DNA of 64,000 bases, taken from NCBI GenBank assembly GCA_028717565.1, contig JAQUNP010000001.1, positions 293,996 to 357,995 on the forward strand, in the 5' to 3' direction. Source of the DNA: Patescibacteria group bacterium. GTDB lineage: Bacteria; Patescibacteriota; Kazan-3B-28. The translations under genes were made by a program, and so were the position numbers. How positions within the stretch are numbered: position 1 is the stretch's first letter; each line of letters starts with the position of its first letter. Under the pieces are notes generated by a model. That model was not told the DNA's origin. It did not search any database and saw only the letters and a program-made list of their open reading frames with translations. This document shows positions 4,487 through 52,422 of this stretch, piece by piece.

Positions 4487-4493
4487 AGGATTA

Positions 4494-12226: not shown

Positions 12227-12388
12227 TGTGGGGATACAGATGAAGGGGAGTGTTTTATCCACACCTTATCCACAATGTATGAACATTTTTACCACAACTG
12301 GGGTTTTAAAAAAGATAATTGGTGAGCTTACAATTTAAGTAGTGCACATTTTCAACATCCCTATAATAATTACTTAATTTAAATAATC
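12217..12388. other. Candidate oriC (DnaA-box cluster plus AT-rich unwinding element)
   Basis: Perfect TTATCCACA boxes at 12255-12263 and 12266-12274. Reverse-oriented near-boxes TGTGGATTA (12217-12225, 1 mismatch) and TGGGGATAC (12229-12237, 2 mismatches). A 28-nt tract at 12361-12388 is about 90 percent AT and lies just before dnaN. Confidence 0.6.
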
Positions 12389-13516: not shown

Positions 13517-13517
13517 T

Positions 13518-26428: not shown

Positions 26429-27184
26429 CTACAAGTTTTCGTAGCCAGGGAGGACTTCAGGGAGATCTCCAGCTGATTGGTAAGTGGGTTTAGCTACTTT
26501 CAGTAGGCCTCCGGATGGGAATTTCATCAAAACCCAGGTTGAGGTTTGGGCAACTATCTCGGCATTGTAGTTGGAGCGATAGTTGACGATGGCGTTGCTA
26601 TCTTCGACTGGTGGATAGGCCAGTTCTTTTTGGAGCCACGTAGTTTCGGCGCCAGTGTTTTTATTGAAACTACGGATAGTTTCATCGGCAAAAATTACGA
26701 GTACGTTGACTCCATCGTAGTACCAGGCCTTGCCACCTTCTTGGTAGGCGACATAGAGTGGAGAGCCGGCTGGCGGTAAGATGGTAGCCAAGATATCCTC
26801 GGCACTCGTCGGGGTTTGTAGGTAGTTGTCTGCTGGGCTTAAAGAGGGGGTTTGGACGGTGCTACCCAGCGAACGATAAATCAACCCCGAGGCGTATTGG
26901 GCGTCCCGCAAGATATCGCTCGGGTTGGGGATGTCGATATTCAAAAAGTCACTGGATGGCTCTTGGGGTGTGGGGAGAGGAGACCCATCGCCGCCCTTGA
27001 GAATGGAGAGGATTGTATTTTGTTCGGCACCAGTGAGTTGCCGTTGCGAGTTAGCAGGGTTGGGTTGGAACTGGTTGGTATTTACAAAGACCTCGGCCAA
27101 GATTAGGCCAATAAGTAAAGTAAACACGAATAAATTGCGGAAAAATTTGAACATGGATTGTGGAGATTTCCGCTGTGCCATCAC
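26429..27184 (-). CDS. Hypothetical membrane-anchored extracytoplasmic protein (last gene of the T4SS-like operon)
   Basis: 251 aa with a single N-terminal TM helix and no recognisable motif. 23 nt downstream of the PilB-like gene on the same strand. Confidence 0.55.
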   Translation of the reverse strand: MMAQRKSPQSMFKFFRNLFVFTLLIGLILAEVFVNTNQFQPNPANSQRQLTGAEQNTILSILKGGDGSPLPTPQEPSSDFLNIDIPNPSDILRDAQYASGLIYRSLGSTVQTPSLSPADNYLQTPTSAEDILATILPPAGSPLYVAYQEGGKAWYYDGVNVLVIFADETIRSFNKNTGAETTWLQKELAYPPVEDSNAIVNYRSNYNAEIVAQTSTWVLMKFPSGGLLKVAKPTYQSAGDLPEVLPGYENL

Positions 27185-27207: not shown

Positions 27208-28848
27208 TTACTCTTCCACGACCCGGAACAACTCTTCTAAGGTAGTCAGGCCGGCTAGGACTTTTCCCATGCCGTCTTGAGCCAATGTTTTCATGCCATT
27301 GGTGATAGCCAGATTGCGAAGGGTTTGGGCCGAGACATCTTGAGAAATGGCATCTTTTATATTAGGGGTGATCTCGAGTAGTTCAAAGATACCTAAACGC
27401 CCCTTATAGCCGCCACTGGTTTTGGCTTGGCAATCCTTACGAATCCGCATGAGTTTCGTGGGGATAGAGGCTGCTGGGAGGATGGACTTTATCTTTTCGA
27501 TATCTTCCGGTGTGGGATCATATTCTTCTGCGCAAGTTGGGTCGATCTTTCTAACCAACCGCTGAGCAATAATTAACCGTAAGGCGTCGGCAAAAAGGTT
27601 GGGTTTGGCACCCAGCTCAATAAGACGAGGAATGGCGCCCGGTGCATCATTGGTGTGGAGAGTGGAAAGTACCAAGTGACCAGTTAAGGAGGCGTTAATG
27701 GCAATGTCTGCAGTTTCTTCGTCGCGGATTTCACCAACTAGAATGATGTCGGGGTCTTGGCGGACAATGGAGCGCAGCGCGTTGGCGAAGTCATAGTGCT
27801 CCTCTTCGTTAACTTGCGTTTGAGTAACACCGGCTAGGCGATATTCTACAGGGTCTTCAACGGTGATGATTTTGGTGGTGGGTGAGTTGATGGTATTTAG
27901 TACCGAATATAGAGTGGTAGTTTTACCAGAACCAGTGGGACCGGTATTAAGGATTAACCCATTTGGTTGCGAAATGATACGATCGACTATAGCTTTGTCG
28001 GCGGCTGAGAGACCGAGCTCGTCTAGGCCAATGAATTTTGCATCTTGTGGGAGTAGGCGCATAACGACCGACTCGCCGTATTGGGTTGGCAAAATGGATA
28101 CGCGAATGTCATAGGTGATATCACCAGCTTTAATGGCCAGGCGACCATCCTGTGAGGATTCGGTAATATTTAGCTTGAGATGGCTCAGGAATTTAATGCG
28201 GTCGACAATGTTTTTGAGAGAACTGGCAGAGAGCTCGGCGACGTCTTGCAAAACACCATCAAGCCGGTAACGTAAGCGCAACGAGGTTTTGGTGGGTTCG
28301 ATGTGGATGTCGGAAGCGTTCATACCGGAGGCGCCGGCGAAGATAAGGGTGAGAGTTTCGCTGACTGATTTGCCTTTTAACTCCTTTTCAAAAGAGGCCT
28401 TGTCAGCCAATTTACTTAACTGGTTACGGAGATCCTCGGTGATTATAATCTCGTCGTTGTTGACAACGGTTGGGGCAAAAGTGTCGTAGGTGGAGAGCAA
28501 ATATCTCATTGACGAATCAGAAACCAAAATCGGTCGGAAGGTGTATTCGTCTAAAGCTGCCAATGTTTTGAGTGCAGCCTGGGTGGATGGATCTTGAGGG
28601 TTGGTTAAGGCAAGGAAAACAGTTTGGCCTTTTTTGTCAAAAGCAAAAACCTGCGCTTCCTGGGCTAACTGTTTGGGAACAAGAGGAACTGTGGAAGGGT
28701 TGGGCTGAAAGTTGCTCATGTTTCTGTACTCCAAATTCAGTTTGGTGGCCAGCTTTTGGGCGTATTCCTCTTCTTTTTGGCGCTGCAAGTTATCAACGAG
28801 GTTGTCGATAGGATTTTGTTTGTCGGGTTGATTGTCGGAAGTAGCCAT
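27208..28848 (-). CDS. GspE/PilB-family secretion ATPase with T2SSE_N-like N-domain
   Basis: 546 aa. Walker A GPTGSGKTTTLYS, Asp box, Walker B ILVGEIRD and His box GHLVLSTLHTND. Confidence 0.9.
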   Translation of the reverse strand: MATSDNQPDKQNPIDNLVDNLQRQKEEEYAQKLATKLNLEYRNMSNFQPNPSTVPLVPKQLAQEAQVFAFDKKGQTVFLALTNPQDPSTQAALKTLAALDEYTFRPILVSDSSMRYLLSTYDTFAPTVVNNDEIIITEDLRNQLSKLADKASFEKELKGKSVSETLTLIFAGASGMNASDIHIEPTKTSLRLRYRLDGVLQDVAELSASSLKNIVDRIKFLSHLKLNITESSQDGRLAIKAGDITYDIRVSILPTQYGESVVMRLLPQDAKFIGLDELGLSAADKAIVDRIISQPNGLILNTGPTGSGKTTTLYSVLNTINSPTTKIITVEDPVEYRLAGVTQTQVNEEEHYDFANALRSIVRQDPDIILVGEIRDEETADIAINASLTGHLVLSTLHTNDAPGAIPRLIELGAKPNLFADALRLIIAQRLVRKIDPTCAEEYDPTPEDIEKIKSILPAASIPTKLMRIRKDCQAKTSGGYKGRLGIFELLEITPNIKDAISQDVSAQTLRNLAITNGMKTLAQDGMGKVLAGLTTLEELFRVVEE

Positions 28849-28850
28849 GA

Positions 28851-30089
28851 TTAAGAAATAGTGATAATAGTTTTGTCGGTGGCTCCGTTGGGGGCAAATT
28901 TGGCTTCGTAGGCCTTAGCGGTATTGATTGCGGCGCCACTACCCCCTGATACTACTGTAGCAGAAAACGTATATTCGTAGGTTTTGGTGCCAGGTTCTAC
29001 TTCTATAGTAATATAGCCCTTGCTAAAGAGGTCATCGCCATTGCCACTTTGGGGAACATACTTTAGTTCGTTGGACATGGTGTCGGTGAGGATGACCTTT
29101 TTTATGCCGTTGCTGTCATTTTGCAGGTTGAGAATAATCTTAAAGTCCAGAGTGTCGCCGACCGACGCGGTAATGTTGTCTCGGAAGGTGGCGTCACTTT
29201 CTCCTCGGACTTTTTTATCGATAAGGTCAAAAGTAAGAGAGCCACTGCCAGTAGTCCCGCCCGAACCGTCAGGGTTACGGGCAAGGACTGTCGCGCTAGC
29301 GGTGTCTCCTTGGGAGGCATCGTTGTAATTAAATACCTTAACGGTATTGGTGTGTGTACCGGCTAGGGTGGGGGAGGCGGAGAAGACGACGTCGATGGAG
29401 ACGCTCTGGCCGGGACCTAGGATGTAGGTATGTTCTTGCCCAAACCAATCGGCATTCAGGCGGCTGTTGCCGACAGATCCTTCAATAAAGCGAAGGCCGC
29501 TGGGCAAGTCGTCTTTCAACACGGCCGTTAGAGTGCCAGTACCTGAGTTCTCCAACTCGGCTTCAATTTTGAAATCGACAGTTGCGTTTACATTCACTTC
29601 TGCGTAACCGCTGTAGTCCTGTCCTCCGGCTTCTTTGACTTCTTTGGTTAGTTTCTCAACGTTAAGACGTGGCTCGGTGGTGGGCTCGACAGGCCCGCTA
29701 GTCGGAGGTAGGGTAGTGCCACCGTCTCGGGGGTTAAGAGGATCGGTGCCACGCAAAATTTCCAAGGCGTCTGATACACCGTCACCATCGGTATCGGGGT
29801 TGAGTGGGTTGGTGCCTTGGGCTGCTTCTTCGCTGTTTGTTAATCCGTCATTGTCATGGTCGCCTGTACCTAAAGCGGGGGAGAGGCGGGCGGTGTTGTT
29901 GGAAGCAATATCTAGCGCGGCCGCCGGCTCAGTAAATCGAGAGTCCCGATCAGATTGGCTGATGTTGTAACGAGTCTTGATGCCAGTGGTTTCTCGTTGA
30001 TAAGTAACATTTAAACTAGCGACTATTAAAGCCAGCGCCAACAACGAGGCAGCAATACTAACGATGCCAGTGGCAACGGTAAATCTCAT
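28851..30089 (-). CDS. TM-anchored surface protein: thrombospondin type-3-like Ca-binding repeats plus two DUF11-like beta-sandwich domains
   Basis: 412 aa. N-terminal TM helix. DHDNDGLTNSEE and DTDGDGVSDALE repeats. Two copies of a domain of about 110 aa (VDFKIEAELENSG.. and LDFKIILNLQNDS..). Confidence 0.6.
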   Translation of the reverse strand: MRFTVATGIVSIAASLLALALIVASLNVTYQRETTGIKTRYNISQSDRDSRFTEPAAALDIASNNTARLSPALGTGDHDNDGLTNSEEAAQGTNPLNPDTDGDGVSDALEILRGTDPLNPRDGGTTLPPTSGPVEPTTEPRLNVEKLTKEVKEAGGQDYSGYAEVNVNATVDFKIEAELENSGTGTLTAVLKDDLPSGLRFIEGSVGNSRLNADWFGQEHTYILGPGQSVSIDVVFSASPTLAGTHTNTVKVFNYNDASQGDTASATVLARNPDGSGGTTGSGSLTFDLIDKKVRGESDATFRDNITASVGDTLDFKIILNLQNDSNGIKKVILTDTMSNELKYVPQSGNGDDLFSKGYITIEVEPGTKTYEYTFSATVVSGGSGAAINTAKAYEAKFAPNGATDKTIITIS

Positions 30090-31892
30090 TTAACCCCCCG
30101 ACAGATTATTTAGCTCGGCTAATTGAGCAGGGTCAGAGGTTACGATTCTGTCTTCAACAAATGATGCGACTACTTTGATAGCGGCATGGTTGGTTCCGGC
30201 AAAAAAGAGGCCTTCACCGACGGCGGACTCAAGTAGCAGGAATTTCTCTCCGTCGGTTAGGTTGAAAGTGTCGGCTATGATATCAATAGAAGCTGGGGAT
30301 TGCCGGAAGAGCAACTGAAGAGATGAGTTGGCCACTACGGCTTTGCCGTATTTGGAGCCCAGGAAATCTTCCACGTCTTGAGTGATAGTAGTTAGACCTA
30401 AGAAATACTTACGAGCTCGTTTGGCGATACTGTAGAGGAATTTAGCCGAGTCCTCATGTTGCATCAAAATCCAAGCCTCGTCGATGACCAGTAAGCGCTT
30501 TCTTTGCTCAAAGCGAATTTTGTTCCAAATGTAGTTCAATACCACGTACATGCCGATGGGTCTTAAGGACTCTTCTAGGTCACGGATATTGAAGACCAAC
30601 AGTCCACGATCTAATTCAAAGTTTGTGGGCTGGTTGAAAACTCCAGAGAAGGTCCCACGCGTATATTTACTTAAACGCTGTGACAAGCTCTCTGCTCCCG
30701 ACATATTATCCAGGACGTTTTGTAGATCTTCCATTGTCGGTGGTTGGTTTTTGTGAGTTTTTAGGTCATCAGTAATATCTTTGACTGCGTAGGTTTCACG
30801 AATAGCTTTGTCCATTAGGGCATCTTCTTCGGGGTTGAGTTTGCCTAACATCAAATTCATCAATCCGAGAATCGTAATGACGGCTGCGCGTAGAACCTTT
30901 TCTCCGCTGGCATCTTCGCCAAGATCGGGCAGATCAAATGGGTTGATACGTTTCTCACTGTTTAGAGAAATAGAAACGTAGCTGCCACCGACTGCATCGG
31001 TTAAGGATTTATATTCGTCTTCTGGGTCGATGACGATAACGTCAGTCCCCAGCATCATAGACCTTAAGATCTCTAATTTTACTGCGTAGGATTTACCACC
31101 TCCAGATTTAGCGAAGACGGCCATGTTGGCGTTTTCTAGTTCGAATCTGTCAAAGAGGATGAGGGAATTGTTATGGCGGTTGACGCCGTAAAGGACACCT
31201 CGCCCGGTAGTTAGATCTACCGAAGTAAATGGGAAGGTGGTGGCTAAAGATGAGGTGGTCATATTTCTGACGACATTGATTTCATCTAGGCCCAAAGGCA
31301 GAGACGAATTGAAGCCCTCGGCCATCTGGAGCAAAGCGGGTTTGGTGTAGATAAGCTGCCCACCCAAAACTTTTTCAACGTGGCCACTCATACTATCGAG
31401 CTCTTCTAAACTTTTGGCGTAAACGGTGATGTAGAGACCCAAATGGAAGAATCTTTCTAGCCCTCGCTGTAGCCGGTCACGTAACTCCTCGGCGTCTTGG
31501 TAGGCAATCTCAAGTTCAGGGTCACGAATAGCGCCCTTCTCTTGTTGGATTCTTAGGGAAGATTCCATCTCCGCGACCTTACGACGGAGTACCCGCATAA
31601 TATTTTCGTTGTCGACTGGGTACATATGCATGGATATATCCAGATTGATATCGTAGTTAATAATAGGGCTAAGCCAGTTGGTCTCGACGTACTGCGGATA
31701 GGTTAGTACAAAAAAGCTGCGTGCCAGATGGTCGTTGAGCTGGATGTGGTCATTTTGAATTTGCATCGCGGCTGGGGCGATGAGGTCGCGGACTGAAACC
31801 AGACCGGCTTCAAACTTCTCTAGGGCGGCTTTGGCCTCCCGCTCTTCCTTGCTAGCTGTTTTTCGTTTAAATGGCCACATATTATTGTTCAC
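30090..31892 (-). CDS. virB4: Type IV secretion VirB4/TrsE-like ATPase
   Basis: 600 aa. Walker A KSGGGKS (nt about 31089-31106), Walker B LLVIDEAW and GLTTITQDVEDF motifs. N-terminal VirB4-type domain. Confidence 0.85.
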   Translation of the reverse strand: MNNNMWPFKRKTASKEEREAKAALEKFEAGLVSVRDLIAPAAMQIQNDHIQLNDHLARSFFVLTYPQYVETNWLSPIINYDINLDISMHMYPVDNENIMRVLRRKVAEMESSLRIQQEKGAIRDPELEIAYQDAEELRDRLQRGLERFFHLGLYITVYAKSLEELDSMSGHVEKVLGGQLIYTKPALLQMAEGFNSSLPLGLDEINVVRNMTTSSLATTFPFTSVDLTTGRGVLYGVNRHNNSLILFDRFELENANMAVFAKSGGGKSYAVKLEILRSMMLGTDVIVIDPEDEYKSLTDAVGGSYVSISLNSEKRINPFDLPDLGEDASGEKVLRAAVITILGLMNLMLGKLNPEEDALMDKAIRETYAVKDITDDLKTHKNQPPTMEDLQNVLDNMSGAESLSQRLSKYTRGTFSGVFNQPTNFELDRGLLVFNIRDLEESLRPIGMYVVLNYIWNKIRFEQRKRLLVIDEAWILMQHEDSAKFLYSIAKRARKYFLGLTTITQDVEDFLGSKYGKAVVANSSLQLLFRQSPASIDIIADTFNLTDGEKFLLLESAVGEGLFFAGTNHAAIKVVASFVEDRIVTSDPAQLAELNNLSGG

Positions 31893-32562: not shown

Positions 32563-33108
32563 TTATTCAACATCTTCTAATACATCTTCAACCCCCAAGC
32601 TTTGTTCGGGTTCGATGACAGGAGCGTCAATGTGAGCGACTTGCGTGGTGATTGCATCAGCATCGTTCTCATTCATTTTACCACCCGTATCTAAGATGTT
32701 GGCGAGCTTCTCTATTTGAGTTTTGAATTCGCCTGGGCTTCTGCGTTCGGCAATTTCTTCTTTGGTGGTCTTGATGTCTTCACCGCGGACACGGATGGCT
32801 TTAACATGACGACGGGGTTCTTTGCTCCAAGTACGAATACGAGGGGCCATAACGAATTTGAATAAACTAAGCAGAAATACACCAAAGGGACGGCCATTAA
32901 TTTTTAAGAAGGCCATGGCCAGCACAAAGAAACCAACTACCACAGTAATGGCCAAAAACTCGATAAAGTAGAGATATGCCCGAGTGTAGTATTGGTAGGC
33001 GATGAAGATCACGGCTCCGCCACCCAGAAGGTAGAGGAACTGCTTCAAAGTTAGTGGACCGACTAACTTGTCTTCAATCGTAACGTTTTGTGGGATTTTA
33101 GCAGACAT
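32563..33108 (-). CDS. PrgI-family (VirB3-like) small membrane protein
   Basis: 181 aa. EDKLVGPLTLKQFLYLLGG, then two TM helices, then GRPFGVFLLSLFKFVMAPRIRTW, as in PrgI-type proteins. Charged C-terminal tail. Confidence 0.6.
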   Translation of the reverse strand: MSAKIPQNVTIEDKLVGPLTLKQFLYLLGGGAVIFIAYQYYTRAYLYFIEFLAITVVVGFFVLAMAFLKINGRPFGVFLLSLFKFVMAPRIRTWSKEPRRHVKAIRVRGEDIKTTKEEIAERRSPGEFKTQIEKLANILDTGGKMNENDADAITTQVAHIDAPVIEPEQSLGVEDVLEDVE

Positions 33109-33110
33109 AC

Positions 33111-35921
33111 TTAATACTCCTCCTCTTCCTCTTCTTCACTAGCGTTTTTATTTTTGGTGGTATTTTTAGGGCTACTATCTTGATTGCGGATAGCATCTAA
33201 CATTCGATGTACTTCTGACATCAGCCGATCGGTTGAGACGTCGCCAAGCTCTGCGGCATCCGTGATAATCTTGCCTTTATTAGAAATTGGGATATCTAAC
33301 TTCTGTTGGATTTCAAAGAAGCGTTTTTGGATTTCGGCTGCGTCTTCCAATGCGCTAGCAGGTACGTCGGACGGCTTCACAGAGGGGTTGTCGGCCAAAG
33401 GTTTGTTGTAAGCGGTGGCGATGTCCTGGATGAGCTTGGTAAGCTCTGGGGCAAGTGTGGTTGTGTCAACACCTCGAGCGACTGCGTTCTTGATGGCCAA
33501 CGAATAGGCGGGAGTTCTGTGATTGGCTCGGGCAAACTTTTGTCGGAGCCGCTCCACTCTTATACGGGGGGTAATGGTGGCCCTGGATTTATCTATGAAT
33601 TCGGTAATCTTAGGGTTCTTTTGAGCAGCCCTGGCTATGGTTTTGCCATCTTTTAGTTTGTCCACGTCTAGGTCGGTTTTGACTAGAAGCTCGGAAATGT
33701 CTTTGACAGTAGCTTCATCCCCAGATCCGAAGACGCCGGTGATAGTTAGCAGATAATCGGACAGTTCCTTTTGCTTCTCGGCGGCTGGTTTATTAGAGCG
33801 CCGAATACTTTTTAGAGTACTTTTTTGTCTGTCGTTGAGTAGGGACTCTAGAGCATCTAGTGCTACAGAATCAGTACTAGCGAGTTGGTCGCGTACCGTA
33901 TCCTCGGTGACTTGTTTGTAGTGGTCTAGATCCTCAGCGGAGGCCTGTGTAGCAAGGCGGAGTGCCGCGTGAATGGTTGGGTCACTGTTGGCGAGCACGT
34001 CTAGCTCACGTTGGAGTGCGCTGGCTTCGGTAGTGGCTTCTTTGAGAGCTTGTTGGTTGATGGCTAGTTCGCTGTAATCTTTTTCGGTCACCTTGCTGGC
34101 TTGGCGCTCTTCGTATCGTTCCAAATCCTTTTCAGAGATGGCCGGTGGTTCTTTGGGCCACCATTTGTTGGTAGCGTCGCGTTTGATGGTTTCGGTAATG
34201 CTGGGGTCGGCCATCAGCTTGATCATGGCAGCTTTGAATGGCACAGATTGGGGGCCGGTTTTATCAGCTTCTTGAGCCAAACGGGTCGACATGCCAGCCA
34301 GTTTTGTGCGGGTCTCAATACTGGTATCGCCATTGTTGATTTGTTGGACCAGCTCTTCGATTTGTTGAGCAAGGGCTTCTGGGCTGTAGCCAATGTCTTG
34401 TTGCAACTTACGTGCCTCAACCAAGATGCTAGTGTGCATCTTGTCATAAGTGGCATACTTCTTAGCCAGATCGGGTCGTTCCTTCTCGAACATAGCTTCA
34501 GCTTTGAACTTCTCTTCTGGCTTGAGTCCCTCTCGCTCCATAATTTGATCAATGGCAACTTTACGTTTATCTGCGAGGTCCTGGTAGATATTCATAATTG
34601 CTTCATTGCCCTGGCTTTGTACGGCTAATTTGCGTCTTTCGGTTTCAGTGTCGCGAATTCGTTTTTGGTTTTCAAAGAAAGACTGAACTCCACGAACCAT
34701 TTTGGCGACGGGGGCACCCATTTTGGTGCCGCCCACGGTCTCAAGCCCACGAGCTGTCCAAGTGCCCGCAGCGGTCTTGGTATATTTACCAAGGGCTTTA
34801 CCTCCAGCGGTGCTGACATTACCCAACCAGTTGGCACCACCAGCGGTGATGGCAGCCAGAGAAACGCCGACCATTTTATCGGCCGATCCGGCTGCTAGAA
34901 GCAGAGCAATAACAATAATGAAAATAATGAGGTTAGACCAAAAGTCGCCAGACATTTGGGCGCTGTCATCAACCACCTTCATCAACTCGCCAGCTACATT
35001 AACATCGCTGGTGAAGTAAGTGTAGTAAAACTTCATGGCTCCCGAGATAAGGGCTAGGGCGATTGGTAGAACCAAAATCCACTTAATCATTTCGCTCCAC
35101 CACTGGGAGGCCAGTCCTTGGAGTTCTTTGGCTGGGAAGAGGGACAGGGCAAAATAAATAGGGGCAGCGATGGTTGTATAAATCAGACGGACAGCTCGTT
35201 CTACTAAAATGAAGCCAAGTTTAAATAAAACAATCGCTAAAATAACTTGGACAACGATGACCATGACTGGCTGAAGAATACTGATTCTCCAGTCCACGGC
35301 AGGGTTGAGAGCTCCGTTAAAGCTTTGCATAAAGGTGCCACCAAAGAAACCCACTACGTCGTCGAGGCTGTAACCAAAAATGCTACGGGCGGTGCTAGCT
35401 AGTGTGTCACCAAGGTCAAAGATAAGAATCTGAGCGATCGGGTAGCTGATGTTGGCAACAATTGCGGCAGTGACTAGGCCGGTGATGGCTTTTTTGAGGT
35501 TGTATCCGCTATAGCGGGCGATAATTAAGATGGAGGCAATGAGAAGAGCCAGGAAAAATAAGACGTTGGCGACGCCAAGGACGATATTCCACATGTCATA
35601 GACAATGGTGACTTCGCCTCCAGTTCTAGCAAAGAGAGTTTCAAGGGCAGGGCCGATGGCAGAATCAATAACGAATACCAGAAGTTTGTTTAACCAAGCT
35701 AGGATATAGCCGAGGACGGCTGCTAAAATATTTAAGGCGGCCAAAAAAGGTGCAATGGTGCTTTTGGCGAGAGCATTACCGATAGCCGCTCCGACTGATG
35801 TCTGGGCTAGAGTAGCGGTGGGGAGACCGATCAAAAGACCTGTAGCCAACACCAAAAAAGGCGACTTCACCTTTTGGATTAGTCGATTTTTTGACAATCT
35901 GTCTGCAATTTTTCTAAGCAT
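33111..35921 (-). CDS. VirB6/TrbL-like polytopic membrane protein with long helical C-terminal domain and poly-Glu tail
   Basis: 936 aa. Signal-like N-terminus, about 8 TM helices in aa 1-380, then about 550 aa of hydrophilic helical sequence ending NASEEEEEEEY. First gene of the operon. Confidence 0.55.
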   Translation of the reverse strand: MLRKIADRLSKNRLIQKVKSPFLVLATGLLIGLPTATLAQTSVGAAIGNALAKSTIAPFLAALNILAAVLGYILAWLNKLLVFVIDSAIGPALETLFARTGGEVTIVYDMWNIVLGVANVLFFLALLIASILIIARYSGYNLKKAITGLVTAAIVANISYPIAQILIFDLGDTLASTARSIFGYSLDDVVGFFGGTFMQSFNGALNPAVDWRISILQPVMVIVVQVILAIVLFKLGFILVERAVRLIYTTIAAPIYFALSLFPAKELQGLASQWWSEMIKWILVLPIALALISGAMKFYYTYFTSDVNVAGELMKVVDDSAQMSGDFWSNLIIFIIVIALLLAAGSADKMVGVSLAAITAGGANWLGNVSTAGGKALGKYTKTAAGTWTARGLETVGGTKMGAPVAKMVRGVQSFFENQKRIRDTETERRKLAVQSQGNEAIMNIYQDLADKRKVAIDQIMEREGLKPEEKFKAEAMFEKERPDLAKKYATYDKMHTSILVEARKLQQDIGYSPEALAQQIEELVQQINNGDTSIETRTKLAGMSTRLAQEADKTGPQSVPFKAAMIKLMADPSITETIKRDATNKWWPKEPPAISEKDLERYEERQASKVTEKDYSELAINQQALKEATTEASALQRELDVLANSDPTIHAALRLATQASAEDLDHYKQVTEDTVRDQLASTDSVALDALESLLNDRQKSTLKSIRRSNKPAAEKQKELSDYLLTITGVFGSGDEATVKDISELLVKTDLDVDKLKDGKTIARAAQKNPKITEFIDKSRATITPRIRVERLRQKFARANHRTPAYSLAIKNAVARGVDTTTLAPELTKLIQDIATAYNKPLADNPSVKPSDVPASALEDAAEIQKRFFEIQQKLDIPISNKGKIITDAAELGDVSTDRLMSEVHRMLDAIRNQDSSPKNTTKNKNASEEEEEEEY

Positions 35922-35966
35922 TTTTATTTTTGTTTTGAGATATCAGTCCGTCTCGAGCTTGTTTTA

Positions 35967-35995
35967 ATTATAGCAAAAAATTGGCTTCTAGTCAA
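35967..35995 (-). promoter_or_regulatory. Near-consensus sigma70-type promoter of the T4SS-like operon
   Basis: The minus strand reads TTGACT (35995-35990), a 17-nt spacer, then TATAAT (35972-35967), about 45 nt upstream of the ATG at 35921. Confidence 0.6.
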
Positions 35996-36080
35996 TATCT
36001 TGGGAGGATGCTGTATAATATATGTACCAGATATAAAGAAACTAATTTCGCTTTACAAAAACACTAAAAGATGTCGTGAT

Positions 36081-37556
36081 ATGGAAAGTATGGGGGAGGA
36101 TAACAATCAGCAGGAGCTAAATAGCTCGCCTCCAGAGAGCAAAAGTCCGCAAGACGAGTTGGAGGCGCTTTTGCAGCAGAGCCGGGTGAATCAGCCACGC
36201 AAGTCGGGGATAGTTTTACCACAAGGTGGGGGCAAAAAAACTAATTGGCTGGTGATTTTTATCGCAATTTTGGCAGTTGTGCTGCTAGCGGCGACGATTG
36301 GTTTTCTGGTTTGGGGAGTGGGGGCAAACAAAGGGACGGCCATATTTTACTTGAACGAGGATGGTGTTACCGTAGCGGTGGACGGACGAGATTTTGGGGC
36401 GGTGGATTCTGGTTTTGAGGCGAGTTTGAGCGTAGGGACACACTCCGTGACCGTTGCTAAAGATGGTTTTCTAGAAATGCAAGAAGGGTTTGAATTGGTT
36501 CGAGGAGAAACCAAAGAGATATATCTAGAACTTCTGCCTATACCCTTTATTGAAACGGTACTGGGTAGCACTGACATTAAGTACGCACGCTTGAGTTTGG
36601 ATGGAAGCGAAGCGTCGTTTTTTGACAGCAGTGACAATCGATTTAAGAGTGTCGATATGGATACCGGTAAAGTGGTGGAACTTTTTGAAGGCCGATCCTT
36701 TAGCCAAAAGATTGTTGGCGTAAGCTGGTCAGTAACTGGTCGGGCTGCGCTGGTTCGATTAACCGGTGTAGGGCAGTTACAAAACATGATAGATAACCGT
36801 AAAGTTTTGGGTGCTTATATTCCCCTAGGTGAACAGCCCGAGCAGGGAACTGCAAACTACAATGGCATCAATACCTGGCTGTTTGACGATACTCTGAAAA
36901 ATGTTTCTGGTTGGCGACCGGTGCTTTTGAATGAAAGTGTACGCGAGACTGCTTTTGGAGCGAATGGCGGCTCCATTGTCTATTTGTATGACCCAGTTGG
37001 AGACGAGTACTCTTTGGTAAAAGCTGATCCCGATGGCGCCGAATGGGAGCGGGTGGTTTTAGAATTGCCGCAATTTGAAACTCCGATACTATGGTGGAGT
37101 CCGGACGATAGGTATTTATTGATTGAAGATGGGGCAACGACTTATTTGGTAGATGTCTTGGCTGGAGTGGTGGAGAGTGTGTTGGCAGACCGAGTGGAAG
37201 ACAGTGGTTTGGCGTTTTCTCCAGATGGAGATAGAGTAGCATATGTAGTGGAAGATGATAATGGGGCTAGGCGGTTGAACGTGTTTGACATGGTGCAAAA
37301 TGAAGCCGCCGACAGTGATGCATTAGCCGATATTGAGATGCAAGATGCGAACTTTGTTTGGACTAGCGGAGATACAGTCTTGGTGACTCTGGCTAACAAA
37401 ACTTTTAGAGAAATAGACATTAATGATGGTAGCGAGAAGCTCATTCCATTTGTGGGACAGGACACTGATTTTGAAGTAATTGGGCTGGAATATAGTCGAC
37501 TAGGCAGGATGTTGTTACTAGAAACTGACAAAGGCCTCTTTAAGATGCAGGTTTGA
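36081..37556 (+). CDS. TM-anchored PEGA-domain plus TolB-like beta-propeller protein
   Basis: Start moved to M28 (ATG 36081) because a TATAAT at 36014-36019 lies inside the track ORF. One TM helix. PEGA-like VAVDGRDFG...GTHSVTVAKDGF. Propeller repeats (FSPDGDRVAYVVEDDNG). Confidence 0.6.
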   Translation: MESMGEDNNQQELNSSPPESKSPQDELEALLQQSRVNQPRKSGIVLPQGGGKKTNWLVIFIAILAVVLLAATIGFLVWGVGANKGTAIFYLNEDGVTVAVDGRDFGAVDSGFEASLSVGTHSVTVAKDGFLEMQEGFELVRGETKEIYLELLPIPFIETVLGSTDIKYARLSLDGSEASFFDSSDNRFKSVDMDTGKVVELFEGRSFSQKIVGVSWSVTGRAALVRLTGVGQLQNMIDNRKVLGAYIPLGEQPEQGTANYNGINTWLFDDTLKNVSGWRPVLLNESVRETAFGANGGSIVYLYDPVGDEYSLVKADPDGAEWERVVLELPQFETPILWWSPDDRYLLIEDGATTYLVDVLAGVVESVLADRVEDSGLAFSPDGDRVAYVVEDDNGARRLNVFDMVQNEAADSDALADIEMQDANFVWTSGDTVLVTLANKTFREIDINDGSEKLIPFVGQDTDFEVIGLEYSRLGRMLLLETDKGLFKMQV

Positions 37557-37557
37557 T

Positions 37558-39810
37558 ATGGCGGAGAATGAGAATCAAGAGGGATTTTTTTCGAAGGATG
37601 AAATTGCAAAGCGACGGCGGACTCTTTACCAACTAAAAGGCCGATTCAAGGACCTTAATCCGGAGTGGGTGAAGGCGCATCCTGACCAGATGGCTGAGAT
37701 GATGGCTGGGATTGAGGAGGGCTTAGAGGAAATAGAAAGGAACAAGCCGCTGGCTAAGTTTGGGGCGACTAATTTGGATTTGCTGGCAGGTAGGGTGGGG
37801 CGAGCTGAAGATGCACAGAAGTCTGCTGATGAAAAGCAGCAACCGGATTCGGAAGCTCAAGAGTCGGAACAAAAACAGGGCCAAGAGAGGCCAGATCAGC
37901 AGGATGACTGGGAGAGGGCAAAAAAGGAGCTAGAAAAAAAGAAGGGCAAGGAGGAGCCTCAAGGCAAAGACAAAGTTGAAAATGAACCTGAGGCCAAACA
38001 ATCTACCACCGAGGGCGAGGCCGGTCCCAAAACGGAGCCGAAGCCGACGTCTTCTGCTACGCCTAAGCCGACGGGGGCATCTGTGCCAAAACCGGTCCCA
38101 GCGGCTGGAGCCGGAGCTGGTGGTGGAGCCGCAGCTGCAGGTAGCGGTGCGGCGGCTGGAGGGGCTGCAGCCGGAGCTGGTGGTGGAGCCGCAGCTGCAG
38201 GTAGCGGTGCGGCGGCGGCTGGAGGCATAGCTGCCGGCTGGTGGATTGTTTTGATAATCTTGGCAGTCGCTTTAATCGCGATTCTTTTTTATATAATTTA
38301 TGCGGCAGCCCAAAATAAGGTCTTGGATGAGGCCGGCGGATCAGTTTTTGTAACATTGAGTTGCGAGAGTACGTATGACCAAGAATTGGTGAATGACGTG
38401 ATTTTTTGGACACAAAACCCCACTGATAATCCGAGGTTGGTTTTGGCACCAGAAATAGTTCACGATATTGAATGGCAGGGAGAGGGCTGCACAGATGAAA
38501 CTACCCATAAATTAGACAAGAGGGTTATGGAAACATTACGGTATTTGGTATCTGACCCGCCGCTGGGTGTGGCGTGGCCCAAGATTATGGTGGGATTGTT
38601 GGCCAGCAATGGACCGGACAAAACTGTTCGGGCCGCCAATGAGCAGGAGCGGGAGTTGGCTATCGATGAACCAATAGCCACATTCTCAGCTTATGGTACG
38701 GGGCAGGCCCTGGGGATTACAGCGATTGGGGTAACCAGTCCAGAACTGACCGCCGCTATGGGTTTGCTTAACCCAGTGCCAGTGCAGGTGGGTTGGCAGG
38801 AAGTGTTTAGTGTTAATCGACTGTATCCACTGTATGAGGCAATGCAATTTGATGCATCATTTTTATATGATGAGTTGGCGAAGATTATAAATATTAGTGA
38901 GTTGGGCGGTGCTCAATATTTGCGTGATACGCAAGATACAGAGGGGGAGCTCAAAATAGCCGATCTTTATTTGGTAGCCCAAAAGCGAGTCAGTGATTTG
39001 CGAGTGAATATAGCCAATATATCTGGACTGTTTTCTAGCCCGACGTTTTCGGAGGCGGCTATTGAATATTTCAGTCGGGCGGATGCGGACTTGGCCAGAG
39101 CCGAAGAACGGCTAGCCGCTGCCTTGGCAGAATCGCCGGAGGCATTTATTGATGCATGGGCAGAAGGCAGAGATAATCCTGAAGCTGTGGGTGTAGCGGA
39201 TGAGGACACTCTGGTTTATCAGGGCATACGTGAAGGTATCCGATTTGTGTTTAGAGCGATGCAAGTGGCTAATATGGAGGGGTGGCGTGGTAACCGAGAT
39301 CGGCTGGATCTTTGGCAGGCCTATGAAGCCAGACAACACATCCGACAAGTTGTCCTAGATTTGCTTAGAATGCCCATTGTATTGCAAGGACGAGAGGGGA
39401 TTGGGTATGGACCGGTGGTAAAGCAGATTATTGCGTTCAGCGTTGAAGACGATTTGGATAATGGGTTGCCAGACATTGATATTTATCCCAAGGGAGCTAC
39501 TTCGGTGGATGAGGGTGGAGTAGGCATGGAGCCAGCTCTAGACGGAGTAGTGGATTACTGGGACGTACACTTTTCTTCTGTGCAAGTGGACAACGGCTCT
39601 TTGTCTAAGCTGTGTACATATTTTGTATATGACACTTCGGAAATGACAAACGAGGAGCGGACGGCGGCCAATATGGTGTTGAGCACTTTGGATGCGGGTG
39701 AGTTGGACGGTCTGTGCAATATTTTATATGGTAATGAGGATTATGCTTTGGGCGACAATGAGATCGGCGGCCGAGTCAGCTATCAGAAGTTTCTCCATAT
39801 TGGCTTTTAG
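37558..39810 (+). CDS. Large bitopic protein: disordered charged N-terminal region, Ala/Gly repeat, TM helix, about 480-aa extracytoplasmic domain of unknown fold
   Basis: 750 aa. Starts 1 nt after the previous stop. E/K/Q-rich region, (A/G)n tract, TM helix WWIVLIILAVALIAILFYIIYAAA. No catalytic motif recognised. Confidence 0.6.
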   Translation: MAENENQEGFFSKDEIAKRRRTLYQLKGRFKDLNPEWVKAHPDQMAEMMAGIEEGLEEIERNKPLAKFGATNLDLLAGRVGRAEDAQKSADEKQQPDSEAQESEQKQGQERPDQQDDWERAKKELEKKKGKEEPQGKDKVENEPEAKQSTTEGEAGPKTEPKPTSSATPKPTGASVPKPVPAAGAGAGGGAAAAGSGAAAGGAAAGAGGGAAAAGSGAAAAGGIAAGWWIVLIILAVALIAILFYIIYAAAQNKVLDEAGGSVFVTLSCESTYDQELVNDVIFWTQNPTDNPRLVLAPEIVHDIEWQGEGCTDETTHKLDKRVMETLRYLVSDPPLGVAWPKIMVGLLASNGPDKTVRAANEQERELAIDEPIATFSAYGTGQALGITAIGVTSPELTAAMGLLNPVPVQVGWQEVFSVNRLYPLYEAMQFDASFLYDELAKIINISELGGAQYLRDTQDTEGELKIADLYLVAQKRVSDLRVNIANISGLFSSPTFSEAAIEYFSRADADLARAEERLAAALAESPEAFIDAWAEGRDNPEAVGVADEDTLVYQGIREGIRFVFRAMQVANMEGWRGNRDRLDLWQAYEARQHIRQVVLDLLRMPIVLQGREGIGYGPVVKQIIAFSVEDDLDNGLPDIDIYPKGATSVDEGGVGMEPALDGVVDYWDVHFSSVQVDNGSLSKLCTYFVYDTSEMTNEERTAANMVLSTLDAGELDGLCNILYGNEDYALGDNEIGGRVSYQKFLHIGF
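38109..38216 (+). repeat. Perfect 48-nt direct repeat (period 60 nt) inside the Ala/Gly linker
   Basis: 38109-38156 is identical to 38169-38216 (agccggagctggtggtggagccgcagctgcaggtagcggtgcggcggc). It extends to 54 nt with 1 mismatch. Confidence 0.95.
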
Positions 39811-39861: not shown

Positions 39862-39951
39862 GGAGAGGTGTCCGAGCGGCTTAAGGAACTGGTCTTGAAA
39901 ACCAGCAAGGCGGCAACGTCTTCGTGGGTTCGAATCCCACCCTCTCCGCCA
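39862..39951 (+). tRNA. tRNA-Ser (anticodon UGA), CCA encoded
   Basis: Acceptor GGAGAGG/CCTCTCC, anticodon stem CTGGT/ACCAG with loop CTTGAAA, long variable arm, T-arm GTGGGTTCGAATCCCAC. Confidence 0.95.
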
Positions 39952-40074
39952 CGGGTCAGAATTCAACTGGTTTGAATCTGGATCCGTGGCGAGGGTATGG
40001 ATACGACGCATCCGAAGGACAAAGGTTCGTATACGATGCTGCCAAAATATAGATAAAATCCTTTCCAACATCCG

Positions 40075-40133: not shown

Positions 40134-40148
40134 CACCCTCTCCGCCAC
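40134..40148 (+). repeat. Duplicated 3' end of tRNA-Ser (att-like direct repeat)
   Basis: CACCCTCTCCGCCAC is identical to 39938-39952 (T-stem 3' side, acceptor 3' strand, discriminator, CCA and one more base). The copies are 196 nt apart. Confidence 0.85.
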
Positions 40149-40176: not shown

Positions 40177-40662
40177 ATGGCAGACAAACAAGATAGAGGG
40201 AAAGAACTTTTTTCATGGCAAGCTGGCGAGTTTCGGGCTGCTACACGGGGGGTGTGGTGGCATGTTACGGTTTGGGCCTTGGCAATATTGGCGGTCGTGT
40301 ATTCTGTTTATATACAAAGCTGGTTTTTTATTGGAGTGGTGGTGATGATAGTGGTGGCACTCTATGTTCTTGGGCGAGCAGAGCCGCGGGTGTTCACGCA
40401 CAGTATTACTGATAGCGGGATTTTGGTGGGCGAGAGATTTTATAGTTATGATTCGTTGAAGTCATTTTGGATAGTAAATGACAAGATAGCTGGGGTAACT
40501 TTAAATGTTATGACTGCCAAGCGATTTGATTTACTGTTAACTTTACAAATCCAAGAGAGTGATGTAGAAAAGGTGAGACAGATCCTGTCGAAGTTTCTGC
40601 CAGAGGATGCAGGCAGGGGTGAGGATACGATAGATAAAATCGGTCGGTTTCTTAAATTTTGA
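40177..40662 (+). CDS. Hypothetical membrane protein (2 TM helices plus small C-terminal domain)
   Basis: 161 aa. TATAAT at 40151-40156. No recognisable motif. Confidence 0.6.
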   Translation: MADKQDRGKELFSWQAGEFRAATRGVWWHVTVWALAILAVVYSVYIQSWFFIGVVVMIVVALYVLGRAEPRVFTHSITDSGILVGERFYSYDSLKSFWIVNDKIAGVTLNVMTAKRFDLLLTLQIQESDVEKVRQILSKFLPEDAGRGEDTIDKIGRFLKF

Positions 40663-42537: not shown

Positions 42538-42888
42538 CTACGTGCGGAAAAGGTCGACCACGGATGTGGCGATGACGTAGGCCAGCAGAATGACCACCAT
42601 ACCGATAATGGCATTGATGATGATCTGTTTTGCTGTTTCAGCACCCTTGGCGCCACCTGTGATGTAAGTGATACCGCCATAGACCAAGTAGCCCACAGCA
42701 ATAGCACCAGCGATGCCAGCGATAATCTGGATGGCGTTGTCGATGATGCCAGTTAAGCTATCGATACCACCCGATTGCAGCGCGTCCCCAAGACCGATAT
42801 CGCCCGACGATTGAGCCATAGCAGGCAGGGGCAACAAAAGAATACTGCCAGCTAACCATGCGGATAAATTTACAAATAATTTCTTCAT
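42538..42888 (-). CDS. VirB2/TrbC-like T4SS pilin
   Basis: 116 aa. Signal peptide (..LPAMA), then two hydrophobic helices flanking YGGITYITGGAKGAETAKQIIINAIIGMVVILLAY, the pattern of Gram-positive/CPR T4SS pilins. Confidence 0.7.
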   Translation of the reverse strand: MKKLFVNLSAWLAGSILLLPLPAMAQSSGDIGLGDALQSGGIDSLTGIIDNAIQIIAGIAGAIAVGYLVYGGITYITGGAKGAETAKQIIINAIIGMVVILLAYVIATSVVDLFRT

Positions 42889-42973: not shown

Positions 42974-43312
42974 TTAACCACTCGTGATGACTTCTTTAAA
43001 GGATTGGACAATGGCGTATGCCAACAAAACAATCACAGCTCCGACAATAGCGGAGAGGATAGTTTTTTTACCTCCATCGGTGTTGCCTTGCATATATTTG
43101 ATGCCACCCCAAACAATCATGCCGACAATGATGGCTCCAGCAAAATTGGCGAGCCAAACAATCAACTGCTCGGCGGCTACTCCGGCTTGTTGGACTAACT
43201 GATCAAGATTTTCGGTCGAGCTGGTCTCAGTATTTTGAGCCAAGCAAATTGGCGTGGCAAGAAACCAAGCAGTGGGGAGGCCAAGCAAAAAAGTTTTTAT
43301 AAGTTGGTTCAT
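42974..43312 (-). CDS. VirB2/TrbC-like T4SS pilin (paralog)
   Basis: 112 aa. Signal peptide (..PICLA). WGGIKYMQGNTDGGKKTILSAIVGAVIVLLAY. Its ATG overlaps the TGA of the upstream solute-binding protein gene (ATGA). Confidence 0.7.
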   Translation of the reverse strand: MNQLIKTFLLGLPTAWFLATPICLAQNTETSSTENLDQLVQQAGVAAEQLIVWLANFAGAIIVGMIVWGGIKYMQGNTDGGKKTILSAIVGAVIVLLAYAIVQSFKEVITSG

Positions 43313-51534: not shown

Positions 51535-52422
51535 ATGAAATCCATGCTCATTCCTCTGGTTTTCTTTTCGCAGTTCAAACGGCCGCTGACACTGAAACAA
51601 ATCCGGCGCTACACATGGGGGGAAGAGCGAAGCGAAGTCGATTTGAGGCGGATATTAAAAAGGACCGGTATTAAACAGTCCGGCGATTTCTATTGTCTGG
51701 ACGAGTATCATGTGTTGGAGGTAAGACCACGGCAAAAATTGGCCGAGAAATTTTGGAGACAGGTTAGAAAATACGAGTGGCTGTTTGCTAATGTGCCGTT
51801 TATTAAAATGGTGGCGGTTAGCAATACTTTGTCTTATGACAACGTGACCGAGAACTCTGATATTGATCTATTCGTGGTAGCTGCCAATGGTCGGGTTTGG
51901 ACGGTTAGAGCATGGTTGCTACTTTGGATGACAATCTTGAGGATCAGAGTGCGTTCACCGAAAAAATTCCTGAAGTTTTCTCCTGAAATGTTTGTGGATG
52001 AAAGTGCAATGGACCTGTCCAAATGCGCTCTGGCCAATGACTACCATTTGGCGTATTGGGTGGCGGATTTTGTACCGGTGTGGCGAGCAGATTTTTTTGA
52101 TAGGTTCTGGAAGAGCAATTATTGGCTAAAAAACCAATTACCAGTAGCATTTAGAAGCCCGAATTTGAGGCAAGAATTTGTCAAAAAGGATTGCTCGTCT
52201 TGGTTCGCTTGGGGTCTAGAGAAGATTTTGGGTGGAAGCTTTGGTGATAGGATAGAGATGTGGGCTAAGCGGCGTCAGACCAAGATTATTGAGAAAAGCC
52301 GTGAACGGTTGGGTATTAATCCTAGCGTGATACTCGATGACAATGTAATAAAGGTTCATTTTAATGACAAACGCGCTGAAAGCAGGGAGTTTATTGAGGA
52401 CTGGTTGGCTAGAAACGGCTGA
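51535..52422 (+). CDS. Hypothetical protein with possible Pol-beta-type nucleotidyltransferase motif
   Basis: Start moved to M27. AVSNTLSYDNVTENSDIDLFVV resembles the G/S-x(n)-DxD NTase signature. Otherwise unrecognised. Confidence 0.4.
   Translation: MKSMLIPLVFFSQFKRPLTLKQIRRYTWGEERSEVDLRRILKRTGIKQSGDFYCLDEYHVLEVRPRQKLAEKFWRQVRKYEWLFANVPFIKMVAVSNTLSYDNVTENSDIDLFVVAANGRVWTVRAWLLLWMTILRIRVRSPKKFLKFSPEMFVDESAMDLSKCALANDYHLAYWVADFVPVWRADFFDRFWKSNYWLKNQLPVAFRSPNLRQEFVKKDCSSWFAWGLEKILGGSFGDRIEMWAKRRQTKIIEKSRERLGINPSVILDDNVIKVHFNDKRAESREFIEDWLARNG

Follow-up and report, generated by a model that had tools for sequence, protein, structure and literature searches.

The type IV secretion systems (T4SSs) of Patescibacteria have been surveyed as chromosomal loci close to dnaA that share a VirB4/TrsD/PrgI/VirB6/VirB2 core (Quinonero-Coronel et al. 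2025, PMC12102498). The same survey recorded very few VirB8 or VirB1 homologs in Patescibacteria, including no structural VirB8 homolog in Southlakia epibionticum, and considered that other proteins may take those roles (PMC12102498), which leaves room for unrelated substitutes. In the cultured relative S. epibionticum ML1, the essential T4SS cluster (SEML1_0006-0019) includes a lysozyme/cysteine-protease (CHAP) protein and a large protein with a C-terminal Hedgehog/DD-peptidase fold, the NTF2-like protein of the cluster was scored non-essential, and a 211-residue exported PEGA-domain protein encoded directly after it, SEML1_0005, was scored essential (Wang et al. 2023, supplementary tables, PMC10633639). 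The T4SS is essential for epibiotic growth in the one Patescibacteria species tested, and its envelope-spanning parts are largely unidentified. Here we scrutinized a 64,000-nucleotide stretch (hereafter the window; contig JAQUNP010000001.1, positions 293,996 to 357,995) of a Patescibacteria group bacterium assigned to Kazan-3B-28, in which two adjacent genes are transcribed away from a T4SS-like operon. Gene 1 encodes a membrane-anchored protein with a PEGA domain and a beta-propeller, and gene 2 encodes a 750-residue bitopic protein belonging to a family that has no annotation. We read the pair, tentatively and with somewhat less than even confidence, as an extracytoplasmic scaffold or contact module that is peculiar to this lineage and belongs to the Kazan-type Patescibacteria T4SS. 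The T4SS context is known; the pair, above all the 750-residue family with its unmatched ectodomain, is undescribed. Neither PMC12102498 nor PMC10633639 mentions a PEGA-propeller protein or the 750-residue family as linked to a T4SS, PMC12102498 makes no mention of PEGA, propellers, or Kazan, and our literature search retrieved no published link of PEGA domains to T4SSs.

Linkage of the gene pair to the T4SS locus

The two open reading frames (ORFs) proved to be real as described in the initial annotation. In the ORF list, the gene 1 frame (36000..37556, plus strand) opens at TTG, and its first ATG, at 36081, yields a 491-residue protein whose M1 was invariant among 22 homologs. GenBank holds identical products for both genes, namely MDD5606041.1 (PEGA domain-containing protein, 491 residues) and MDD5606042.1 (hypothetical protein PHR51_01810, 750 residues), both encoded on a 359-kb contig of a Patescibacteria group metagenome-assembled genome. 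A single nucleotide separates the stop codon of gene 1 from the start codon of gene 2 (cag gtt TGA t ATG gcg), and this spacer ranged from 0 to 27 nt in L001 to L006, L102, and L104 (L numbers denote related loci and P numbers denote proteins retrieved in the family census). As also described earlier, the pair lies back to back with the T4SS-like operon, with 159 bp between the divergent start codons.

An exhaustive HMMER census over 1.84 billion cluster representatives retrieved 50 proteins at E ≤ 1e-3, with 48 at E ≤ 1e-10, so the 750-residue family is very small, at about 48 clusters. The two weakest matches, P0050 and P0051, were discarded as uninformative, one being a eukaryotic intron-bearing gene whose locus does not translate to the query and the other coming from a 1.9-kb contig. 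Among GTDB species representatives, the family occurred in 14 genomes labeled candidate division Kazan, Patescibacteria group, or uncultured Saccharibacteria, and it was seen in Kazan-type Patescibacteria only.

Window proteins were mapped onto all fetched loci and the gene calls of those loci were read. The pair is invariably linked to the T4SS locus of this lineage: in each of the 18 other distinct loci whose flank was long enough, it runs away from the VirB6-like gene on the opposite strand. In a typical locus, the genes for the 251-residue protein, PilB, usually the TSP3 protein, VirB4, TrsD, PrgI, and the VirB6-like protein were found on one strand and the pair on the opposite strand, usually followed by DUF5673 and then by one to three VirB2/TrbC-like pilin genes. 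The propeller and 750-residue genes were adjacent wherever the flank permitted a check, the propeller gene coming first in 18 distinct related loci. In two deep-branching loci, L102 (10001-13666; VirB4 72% identical) and L104 (10001-13099; VirB4 68% identical), this order was swapped and the 750-residue homolog came first, the two genes still being adjacent. The propeller genes of both loci were unambiguous homologs of gene 1 (hhalign E 1e-74 and 2e-56, respectively), and L102 carried an extra gene of 187 residues between the VirB6-like gene and the pair. Hence, the adjacency and position of the pair survived internal rearrangement. To the right of the pair, gene content was variable (tRNA genes, HNH, deaminase, glycosyltransferase, and a 5-kb insertion in L018), and the VirB6-like/pair junction was never broken.

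Identity to the window proteins was 72 to 82% for VirB4, 30 to 44% for the PEGA-propeller protein, 27 to 39% for the C-domain of the 750-residue protein, 27 to 37% for the VirB6-like protein, and 26 to 35% for the TSP3 protein. Since these low identities are shared with the VirB6-like and TSP3 proteins, the pair evolves as fast as exposed T4SS parts. For the converse test, 80 metagenomic VirB4 loci were fetched, and the three with a VirB4 at least 71% identical and enough flank all carried the pair. A propeller-profile match in L047, outside the lineage, was rejected, as it corresponded to a generic PD40 protein that has no PEGA domain and whose gene precedes those for RadA and RecG; what looked like a 680-residue gene ahead of DUF5673 in this locus was RecG and no homolog of the 750-residue protein.

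Architecture of the two proteins

The initial description of the gene 1 product as a transmembrane (TM)-anchored PEGA plus beta-propeller protein was borne out by Pfam, AlphaFold2 (AF2), and Foldseek. PEGA (PF08308) was matched at residues 93-151 (E 4.4e-6; 26.9 bits against a cut-off of 20.8). The AF2 model, based on 22 homologs, had a predicted local distance difference test score (pLDDT) of 81 and a predicted template modeling score of 0.70, and placed a disordered polar tail at the N terminus. Foldseek returned 1,686 matches at E ≤ 1e-3, and most of those listed were seven-bladed propellers at E ~1e-11; together, model and matches place the protein among PD40/TolB-type beta-propellers, in which repeats of four-stranded blades close into a ring. 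The PD40 sequence signal of gene 1 itself was sub-threshold (13.2 against 20.9 bits), Tricorn_2nd/PD40 matches were recorded for its homologs, and TolB matches among PDB sequences were weak (E ~1e-3). Assignment to TolB takes a full-length match that includes the N-terminal alpha/beta domain, and TolB has its partner, Pal, in a diderm envelope. Gene 1 is not TolB, scoring 14.8 bits against a cut-off of 343 for the TIGR02800 equivalog in a match that spans part of the propeller only.

For gene 2, the bitopic layout proposed in the initial annotation, with a charged N-region, an Ala/Gly linker, one TM helix, and an ectodomain, was upheld; the N-region is predicted to be disordered for the most part. 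In the AF2 model (45 family members; 327 residues at pLDDT ≥ 90), the N-region was mostly below pLDDT 50, and thus predicted disordered, up to the TM helix, with a three-helix element at residues 13-61. The ectodomain (residues 262-750) was mostly above 90 and consisted of an alpha/beta N-lobe (272-410), a seven-helix bundle (419-608), and an alpha/beta C-lobe (620-750). Its best-conserved stretches were Asp-rich loops (Q.I..SPEDDLDNG...D.FP.G, DG..D..D.HF, and P.DNG.FSK), which, judging from their sequence, are likely Ca2+ sites. A shared plan of a variable N-region of 35 to 330 residues, a hydrophobic TM segment, and a conserved C-domain was found in all 45 aligned members, consistent with the bitopic layout of VirB8-like proteins. 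One member, P0026 (824 residues), carried a canonical DnaJ J-domain at residues ~140-205 (YKVLGV...HPD; E 6.4e-22) and its TM segment at 311-342. Because this J-domain precedes the TM helix, an N-in/C-out orientation can be deduced for the family, which supports a predicted topology of gene 2 with a cytoplasmic N terminus and the C-domain outside. A true J-domain was present in P0026 only among family members. The three N-terminal helices of the window protein, with HPD at residues 41-43, were considered as a J-like domain and rejected, there being no DnaJ match in Pfam or PDB.

No known relative of gene 2 was found by sequence or structure. The protein matched no Pfam or NCBIfam family, the 45 family members had no match in either collection beyond low-complexity noise, apart from the J-domain of P0026, and the separate ectodomain lobes gave no family match even at E ≤ 10. 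Searches of PDB with the sequence and the family profile yielded matches of low complexity, in the N-region only. In Foldseek searches of PDB, the ectodomain had no match below E 0.27; the matches listed were helical bundles such as those of Tsr (ligand-binding domain) and of FbpC and OspC from Borrelia (probability 0.41-0.97, E 0.27-0.74) and concerned the helical insert only. The whole 750-residue model compared with viral structures (BFVD) returned nothing below E 1.4. Structure prediction and Foldseek confirmed the propeller of gene 1 and gave the gene 2 ectodomain no relative in PDB or BFVD.

The PrgK/VirB8-like role that had been suggested for gene 2 was not supported. VirB8-like proteins have ~200-330 residues and an NTF2-like outside domain, and gene 2 is two to three times that size. 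The VirB8, TcpC, and PrgL families had no match in the 45 members, and no NTF2-like fold was among the 50 Foldseek PDB matches listed for gene 2, in a search that took the lobes together. VirB1-like catalytic domains (lytic transglycosylase, SLT, lysozyme, CHAP/NlpC, and LytM) likewise had no Pfam or NCBIfam match in the window protein or its 45 relatives, and no hydrolase or lysozyme was among the Foldseek matches listed. An LAS/M15 (VanY-type) peptidase was also considered for the N-lobe. In the LAS/M15 motif, zinc ligands lie in S-x-H-x-x-G-x-A-x-D, with a further distal His. This candidate was rejected since the residue at position 379 is never His, being Tyr or Phe throughout the family, the Asp is not conserved, and no M15 profile matched. 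The earlier statement that gene 2 has no recognizable catalytic motif was accordingly sustained across profile, motif, and Foldseek searches.

Control region and neighboring genes

The divergent operon comprises seven minus-strand genes headed by the VirB6-like gene (Table 1). Neighboring genes supply a VirB4 of CD1110/TraC type, PrgI, TrsD, a VirB6-like protein, and VirB2-like pilins, the set that characterizes a Patescibacteria/MPF-FATA-type T4SS. With the pilins located to the right of the pair, T4SS genes are split on both sides of it. The T4SS locus was found among housekeeping genes, 15-25 kb from dnaA, dnaN, and recF (window 10832-14627), and the GC skew turned from negative to positive near 8-10 kb of the window. 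Both features indicate an origin-proximal placement, in agreement with the published Patescibacteria pattern (PMC12102498). We saw neither a relaxase nor a coupling protein in the annotated gene set of the window. The presence of PilB inside the T4SS operon is an unusual mix of type IV pilus and T4SS components that was kept across the lineage, and no PilC-type platform protein was seen among the annotated genes of the window.

The initial annotation had further held that no other VirB8 or PrgK candidate is present nearby. This was contradicted by the 251-residue bitopic protein at the end of the operon and by the 766-residue SpoIID-domain protein. By size and topology, the former is a better candidate than gene 2 for a VirB8-type protein, and the latter is a possible wall-remodeling enzyme.

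Within the spacer, the minus-strand site matching 11 of 12 consensus positions was the single outstanding promoter in our scan. An equivalent 11/12 element was found in the spacers of L001, L003, L005, and L006, 18-45 nt ahead of the VirB6-like start codon, and the T4SS promoter is thus conserved. Overlapping -35 boxes had been proposed for the two directions; the minus-strand promoter stood, and the plus-strand -35 (35991-35997) that would overlap the minus-strand one agreed with the consensus at just two to three of six positions, so that half of this proposal was supported. An alternative plus-strand -35, TTTACA at ~36053, is located inside a [C/G]TTTACAAA motif that was present in four of five loci, and this motif, nearer the start codon, may be the real plus-strand -35.

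Downstream of the pair, the DUF5673 membrane protein may be a third member of its module. The last 15 nt of tRNA-Ser(tga), CACCCTCTCCGCCAC, were found at 39938-39952, with an exact copy 196 bp downstream at 40134-40148, just before the DUF5673 gene; the repeat could mark where an integrative element, since lost, was once attached, or it could stem from duplication of part of the tRNA gene. Elsewhere in the window, a minus-strand polysaccharide biosynthesis cluster (2116-8168) encoding two GT4 glycosyltransferases, two Wzy_C/O-antigen-ligase-like proteins, and a flippase adjoins an H+-pyrophosphatase gene, and a third Wzy_C protein is encoded on the plus strand at 52364-53695.

Table 1. Positions of the gene pair, its predicted domains, the control region, and neighboring T4SS-related genes in the window
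Feature	Coordinates	Strand	Evidence or remark
251-residue protein with N-terminal TM helix; last operon gene	26429..27184	-	No family match; position conserved in relatives
PilB/GspE-type ATPase, after the TSP3/DUF11 gene in the operon	27208..28848	-	T2SSE, E 1e-112
Surface protein with TSP3 repeats and DUF11/isopeptide-type domains	28851..30089	-	Pfam, NCBIfam
VirB4 ATPase	30090..31892	-	NF045971, 400.9 bits against cut-off 325, E 1e-119
TrsD/VirB4-N-terminal-like (TraC-like) protein, 225 residues	31882..32559	-	Weak here; TraC-like recorded for orthologs
PrgI (VirB3-like)	32563..33108	-	Pfam, 40.4 bits against cut-off 27
VirB6-like protein, extended, polytopic, 936 residues; first operon gene	33111..35921	-	L102 ortholog matches Pfam TrbL_3
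Divergent control region between VirB6-like and PEGA-propeller genes, 159 bp, 30% G+C	35922..36080		Sequence
T4SS operon promoter: TTGACT (35995-35990), 17 nt, TG, TATAAT (to 35967)	35967..35995	-	Promoter scan, 11/12 positions
Perfect TATAAT, candidate -10 for the PEGA gene	36014..36019	+	Own reading; not called by promoter scan
Gene 1, 491 residues: short polar N-tail, TM helix, PEGA sandwich, seven-bladed PD40/TolB-type beta-propeller	36081..37556	+	ORF, Pfam, AF2, Foldseek
Gene 1 TM helix, residues 56-82	36246..36326	+	AF2, hydropathy
Gene 1 PEGA beta-sandwich, residues 84-149	36330..36527	+	Pfam, AF2
Gene 1 seven-bladed beta-propeller, residues 157-490, all-beta	36549..37550	+	AF2, Foldseek
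Gene 2, 750 residues: bitopic, family without annotation, translationally coupled to gene 1	37558..39810	+	ORF, HMMER, AF2
Gene 2 charged N-region, residues 1-180, K/E/P-rich, predicted cytoplasmic	37558..38097	+	AF2, composition
Gene 2 Ala/Gly tract, 44 residues, 181-224	38098..38229	+	Composition
Gene 2 single TM helix, residues ~225-250	38230..38307	+	Hydropathy, AF2
Gene 2 conserved acidic ectodomain, residues 262-750, ~490 residues, net charge -43	38341..39807	+	AF2, alignment
DUF5673 membrane protein	40177..40662	+	Follows the pair in nearly all related loci
Two minus-strand VirB2/TrbC-like T4SS pilins, directly downstream of the solute-binding protein gene on the same strand	42538-42888 and 42974-43312		T4SS_pilin, 43.2 and 31.9 bits against cut-off 26.6
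766-residue protein with Ig-like (N_BRCA1_IG) and SpoIID domains, ~6 kb from the pair	46011-48311	+	Position conserved in L005, L006, L102, and L104

Candidate role and comparison with known systems

We propose that the two gene products would assemble into a heteromeric module at the outer surface of the cytoplasmic membrane, as part of a chromosomal, origin-proximal T4SS. In protein 1, a PEGA stalk would carry the seven-bladed propeller immediately outside the membrane. Protein 2 would add one membrane span, a floppy charged cytoplasmic tail, and a very acidic ectodomain, built of two lobes plus a helical bundle, that probably binds Ca2+. Coupled translation would yield the two proteins together, and their promoter region would be the one from which the VirB6-like/PrgI/TrsD/VirB4 operon is transcribed in the opposite direction. 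Such a module could brace or extend the membrane translocon and the VirB2-like pilus through the wall zone, or contact the host cell surface, and would fill the envelope-spanning role of VirB8/9/10-type parts while being unrelated to them. From the translational coupling, and from the adjacency retained through the order swap, we infer that the pair forms a two-protein complex on the outer face of the membrane; its co-regulation with the T4SS and any secretion role are likewise presumed.

Of the earlier proposal that the pair represents missing parts of the secretion machine, position and topology remained, given linkage in 18/18 loci and the single TM helix and large outside domain of each protein, and the PrgK/VirB8 analogy was not supported. 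That the pair has the T4SS core operon on one side and the VirB2-like pilin genes on the other supports its reading as a T4SS module. The PEGA protein SEML1_0005 at the essential S. epibionticum T4SS cluster is counted in favor of the same reading, and flags PEGA-domain proteins as recurring neighbors of these T4SSs.

Several observations weigh against a T4SS module, and the functional link of the pair to the T4SS is circumstantial. Neither protein had a homology or fold match to any known T4SS component, and the plus-strand promoter of the pair is weakly defined. No family member was within reach in loci whose VirB4 is at most 63% identical, ~33 of which had close to 10 kb of upstream flank. 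Since these other Patescibacteria T4SS loci are without the pair, the T4SS does not need it in general, and the pair is an addition specific to one T4SS subtype and lineage. Genes encoding an aminoacyl-tRNA synthetase, the solute-binding protein, and a nucleotidyltransferase were equally syntenic in the same loci. In so narrow a lineage, with housekeeping genes as syntenic as the pair, adjacency may reflect inheritance and not function, and linkage by itself is no proof of a functional tie. In a rate-covariation test on 20 taxa, with a correction for VirB4+TrsD distance, the residual correlations were 0.63 for PEGA versus the 750-residue protein, 0.54 for the 750-residue protein versus VirB6-like, and 0.50 for PEGA versus VirB6-like; the control, PEGA versus the solute-binding protein, reached 0.68, so T4SS genes were not separated from it. 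Lastly, a second S. epibionticum PEGA protein, SEML1_0326 (490 residues, PEGA at 56-116), is essential, lies ~300 kb from the T4SS, adjoins a sortase gene, and has an ECOD domain from 3bws, equal to the top Foldseek entry of gene 1 (PMC10633639). Homology of SEML1_0326, which has the same layout, or of SEML1_0005 to gene 1 is no more than a lead, and a word-indexed profile search for Saccharimonadia PEGA proteins returned the window lineage and PEGA-kinase noise only.

The synteny of the flanking housekeeping genes, the operation of the same T4SS core in other classes without the pair, the covariation with the solute-binding control at a level as high as with VirB6-like, and the essential, T4SS-unlinked and sortase-adjoining SEML1_0326 all fit an alternative that we consider unlikely, namely that the pair is a general envelope module for wall or S-layer organization, envelope biogenesis, or division and stands beside the T4SS only through retained gene order. 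PEGA domains and TolB-type propellers are, moreover, common envelope parts. Retained gene order does not readily account for a VirB6-like junction that was never broken, whereas the right side of the pair has indels, nor for the place of the pair being kept through an internal order swap. The embedding of the pair between T4SS core and pilins, and the confinement of the 750-residue family to where this T4SS subtype occurs (VirB4 at least 68% identical), also argue for a tie to the secretion system. If the pair were nevertheless unrelated to secretion, it would still represent a new envelope protein family of an uncultured lineage.

Less probable still is a role in host contact or sensing, in which the pair would be co-regulated with the T4SS and act beside it, outside the channel; the acidic ectodomain, with its four-helix-bundle-like insert, and the propeller would bind a ligand of the host surface, and the long N-tail would serve in signaling or anchoring. 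The sole look-alikes of the ectodomain, Tsr, FbpC, and OspC, are ligand- or host-binding helical bundles (E 0.27-0.74), but these matches are not significant and involve the helical insert only. Fast divergence is typical of exposed host-interaction proteins, and the conserved Asp-rich loops point to Ca2+ binding of the kind seen in adhesins. Variability is high among the N-tails, one of which carries a J-domain, yet this lack of conservation also argues against a specific signaling partner. No signaling output domain was found, and the protein would be anchored near the membrane of its own cell, with no long stalk.

That gene 2 is a T4SS wall-remodeling enzyme (PrgK/VirB1-like) with a catalytic domain too divergent to recognize is very improbable: the bitopic topology found in PrgK, TraG, and CwlT, a loose S-A-[YF]-x-x-G-Q-A after H-x-L-D-x-R that recalls the LAS/M15 motif, and the large Hedgehog/DD-peptidase-fold protein of the S. 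epibionticum cluster speak for it, but the zinc-ligand position is Tyr or Phe in 45/45 members, the Asp has not been retained, peptidase and lysozyme families went unmatched in every member and, up to E 10, in the individual lobes, no hydrolase was among the Foldseek matches listed, and a SpoIID-domain protein is available nearby.

We therefore retain a lineage-specific T4SS scaffold or contact module as the preferred reading. A bolder version of it, which we regard as rather unlikely, is that the gene 2 ectodomain has a previously unseen fold and that gene 2 and the PEGA-propeller protein build a wall-zone scaffold of a new kind. This scaffold would stand in for the missing VirB8/VirB9/VirB10-type parts in the Kazan-type T4SS and would either guide the VirB2-like pilus or dock onto the host cell. 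If true, this would be a lineage-specific solution for crossing the envelope of an epibiotic ultra-small bacterium. The pair, being strictly T4SS-linked, lineage-restricted, and predicted to face outside, thus provides concrete candidates for envelope crossing.

Compared with known proteins, the whole layout of gene 1 aligned best with that of Leptospira Lp49 (PDB 3bws), which combines a sandwich and a propeller (E 4.7e-12, 489 columns). We know of no function for Lp49 itself. Gene 1 shares with TolB the PD40/TolB-type propeller, by weak sequence matches, but differs in being TM-anchored in a monoderm-type cell, in having PEGA as its N-domain, and in having no TolB N-terminal domain. Gene 2 resembles the VirB8-like proteins of monoderms (PrgL, TraM, TcpC, and ConB) in its single-pass N-in/C-out layout, its T4SS locus, and a main domain predicted to be outside; in contrast to them, its ~490-residue ectodomain combines two lobes with a helical bundle and gave no NTF2 match. 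With PrgK, TraG, and CwlT, it has in common an N-terminal membrane anchor, a large extracytoplasmic part, and a T4SS locus, but it carries no SLT, lysozyme, CHAP, NlpC, or LytM domain or catalytic motif. At the level of the whole system, the window locus and the S. epibionticum T4SS share the core (extended VirB6-like protein, PrgI, TrsD, VirB4, and VirB2-like pilins), a chromosomal position near dnaA, and an attached PEGA protein. The lysozyme/CHAP, DD-peptidase, and NTF2-like proteins of S. epibionticum have no counterpart in the window locus, whereas the additions of the window lineage are the PilB-type ATPase, the TSP3/DUF11 protein, and the divergent pair.

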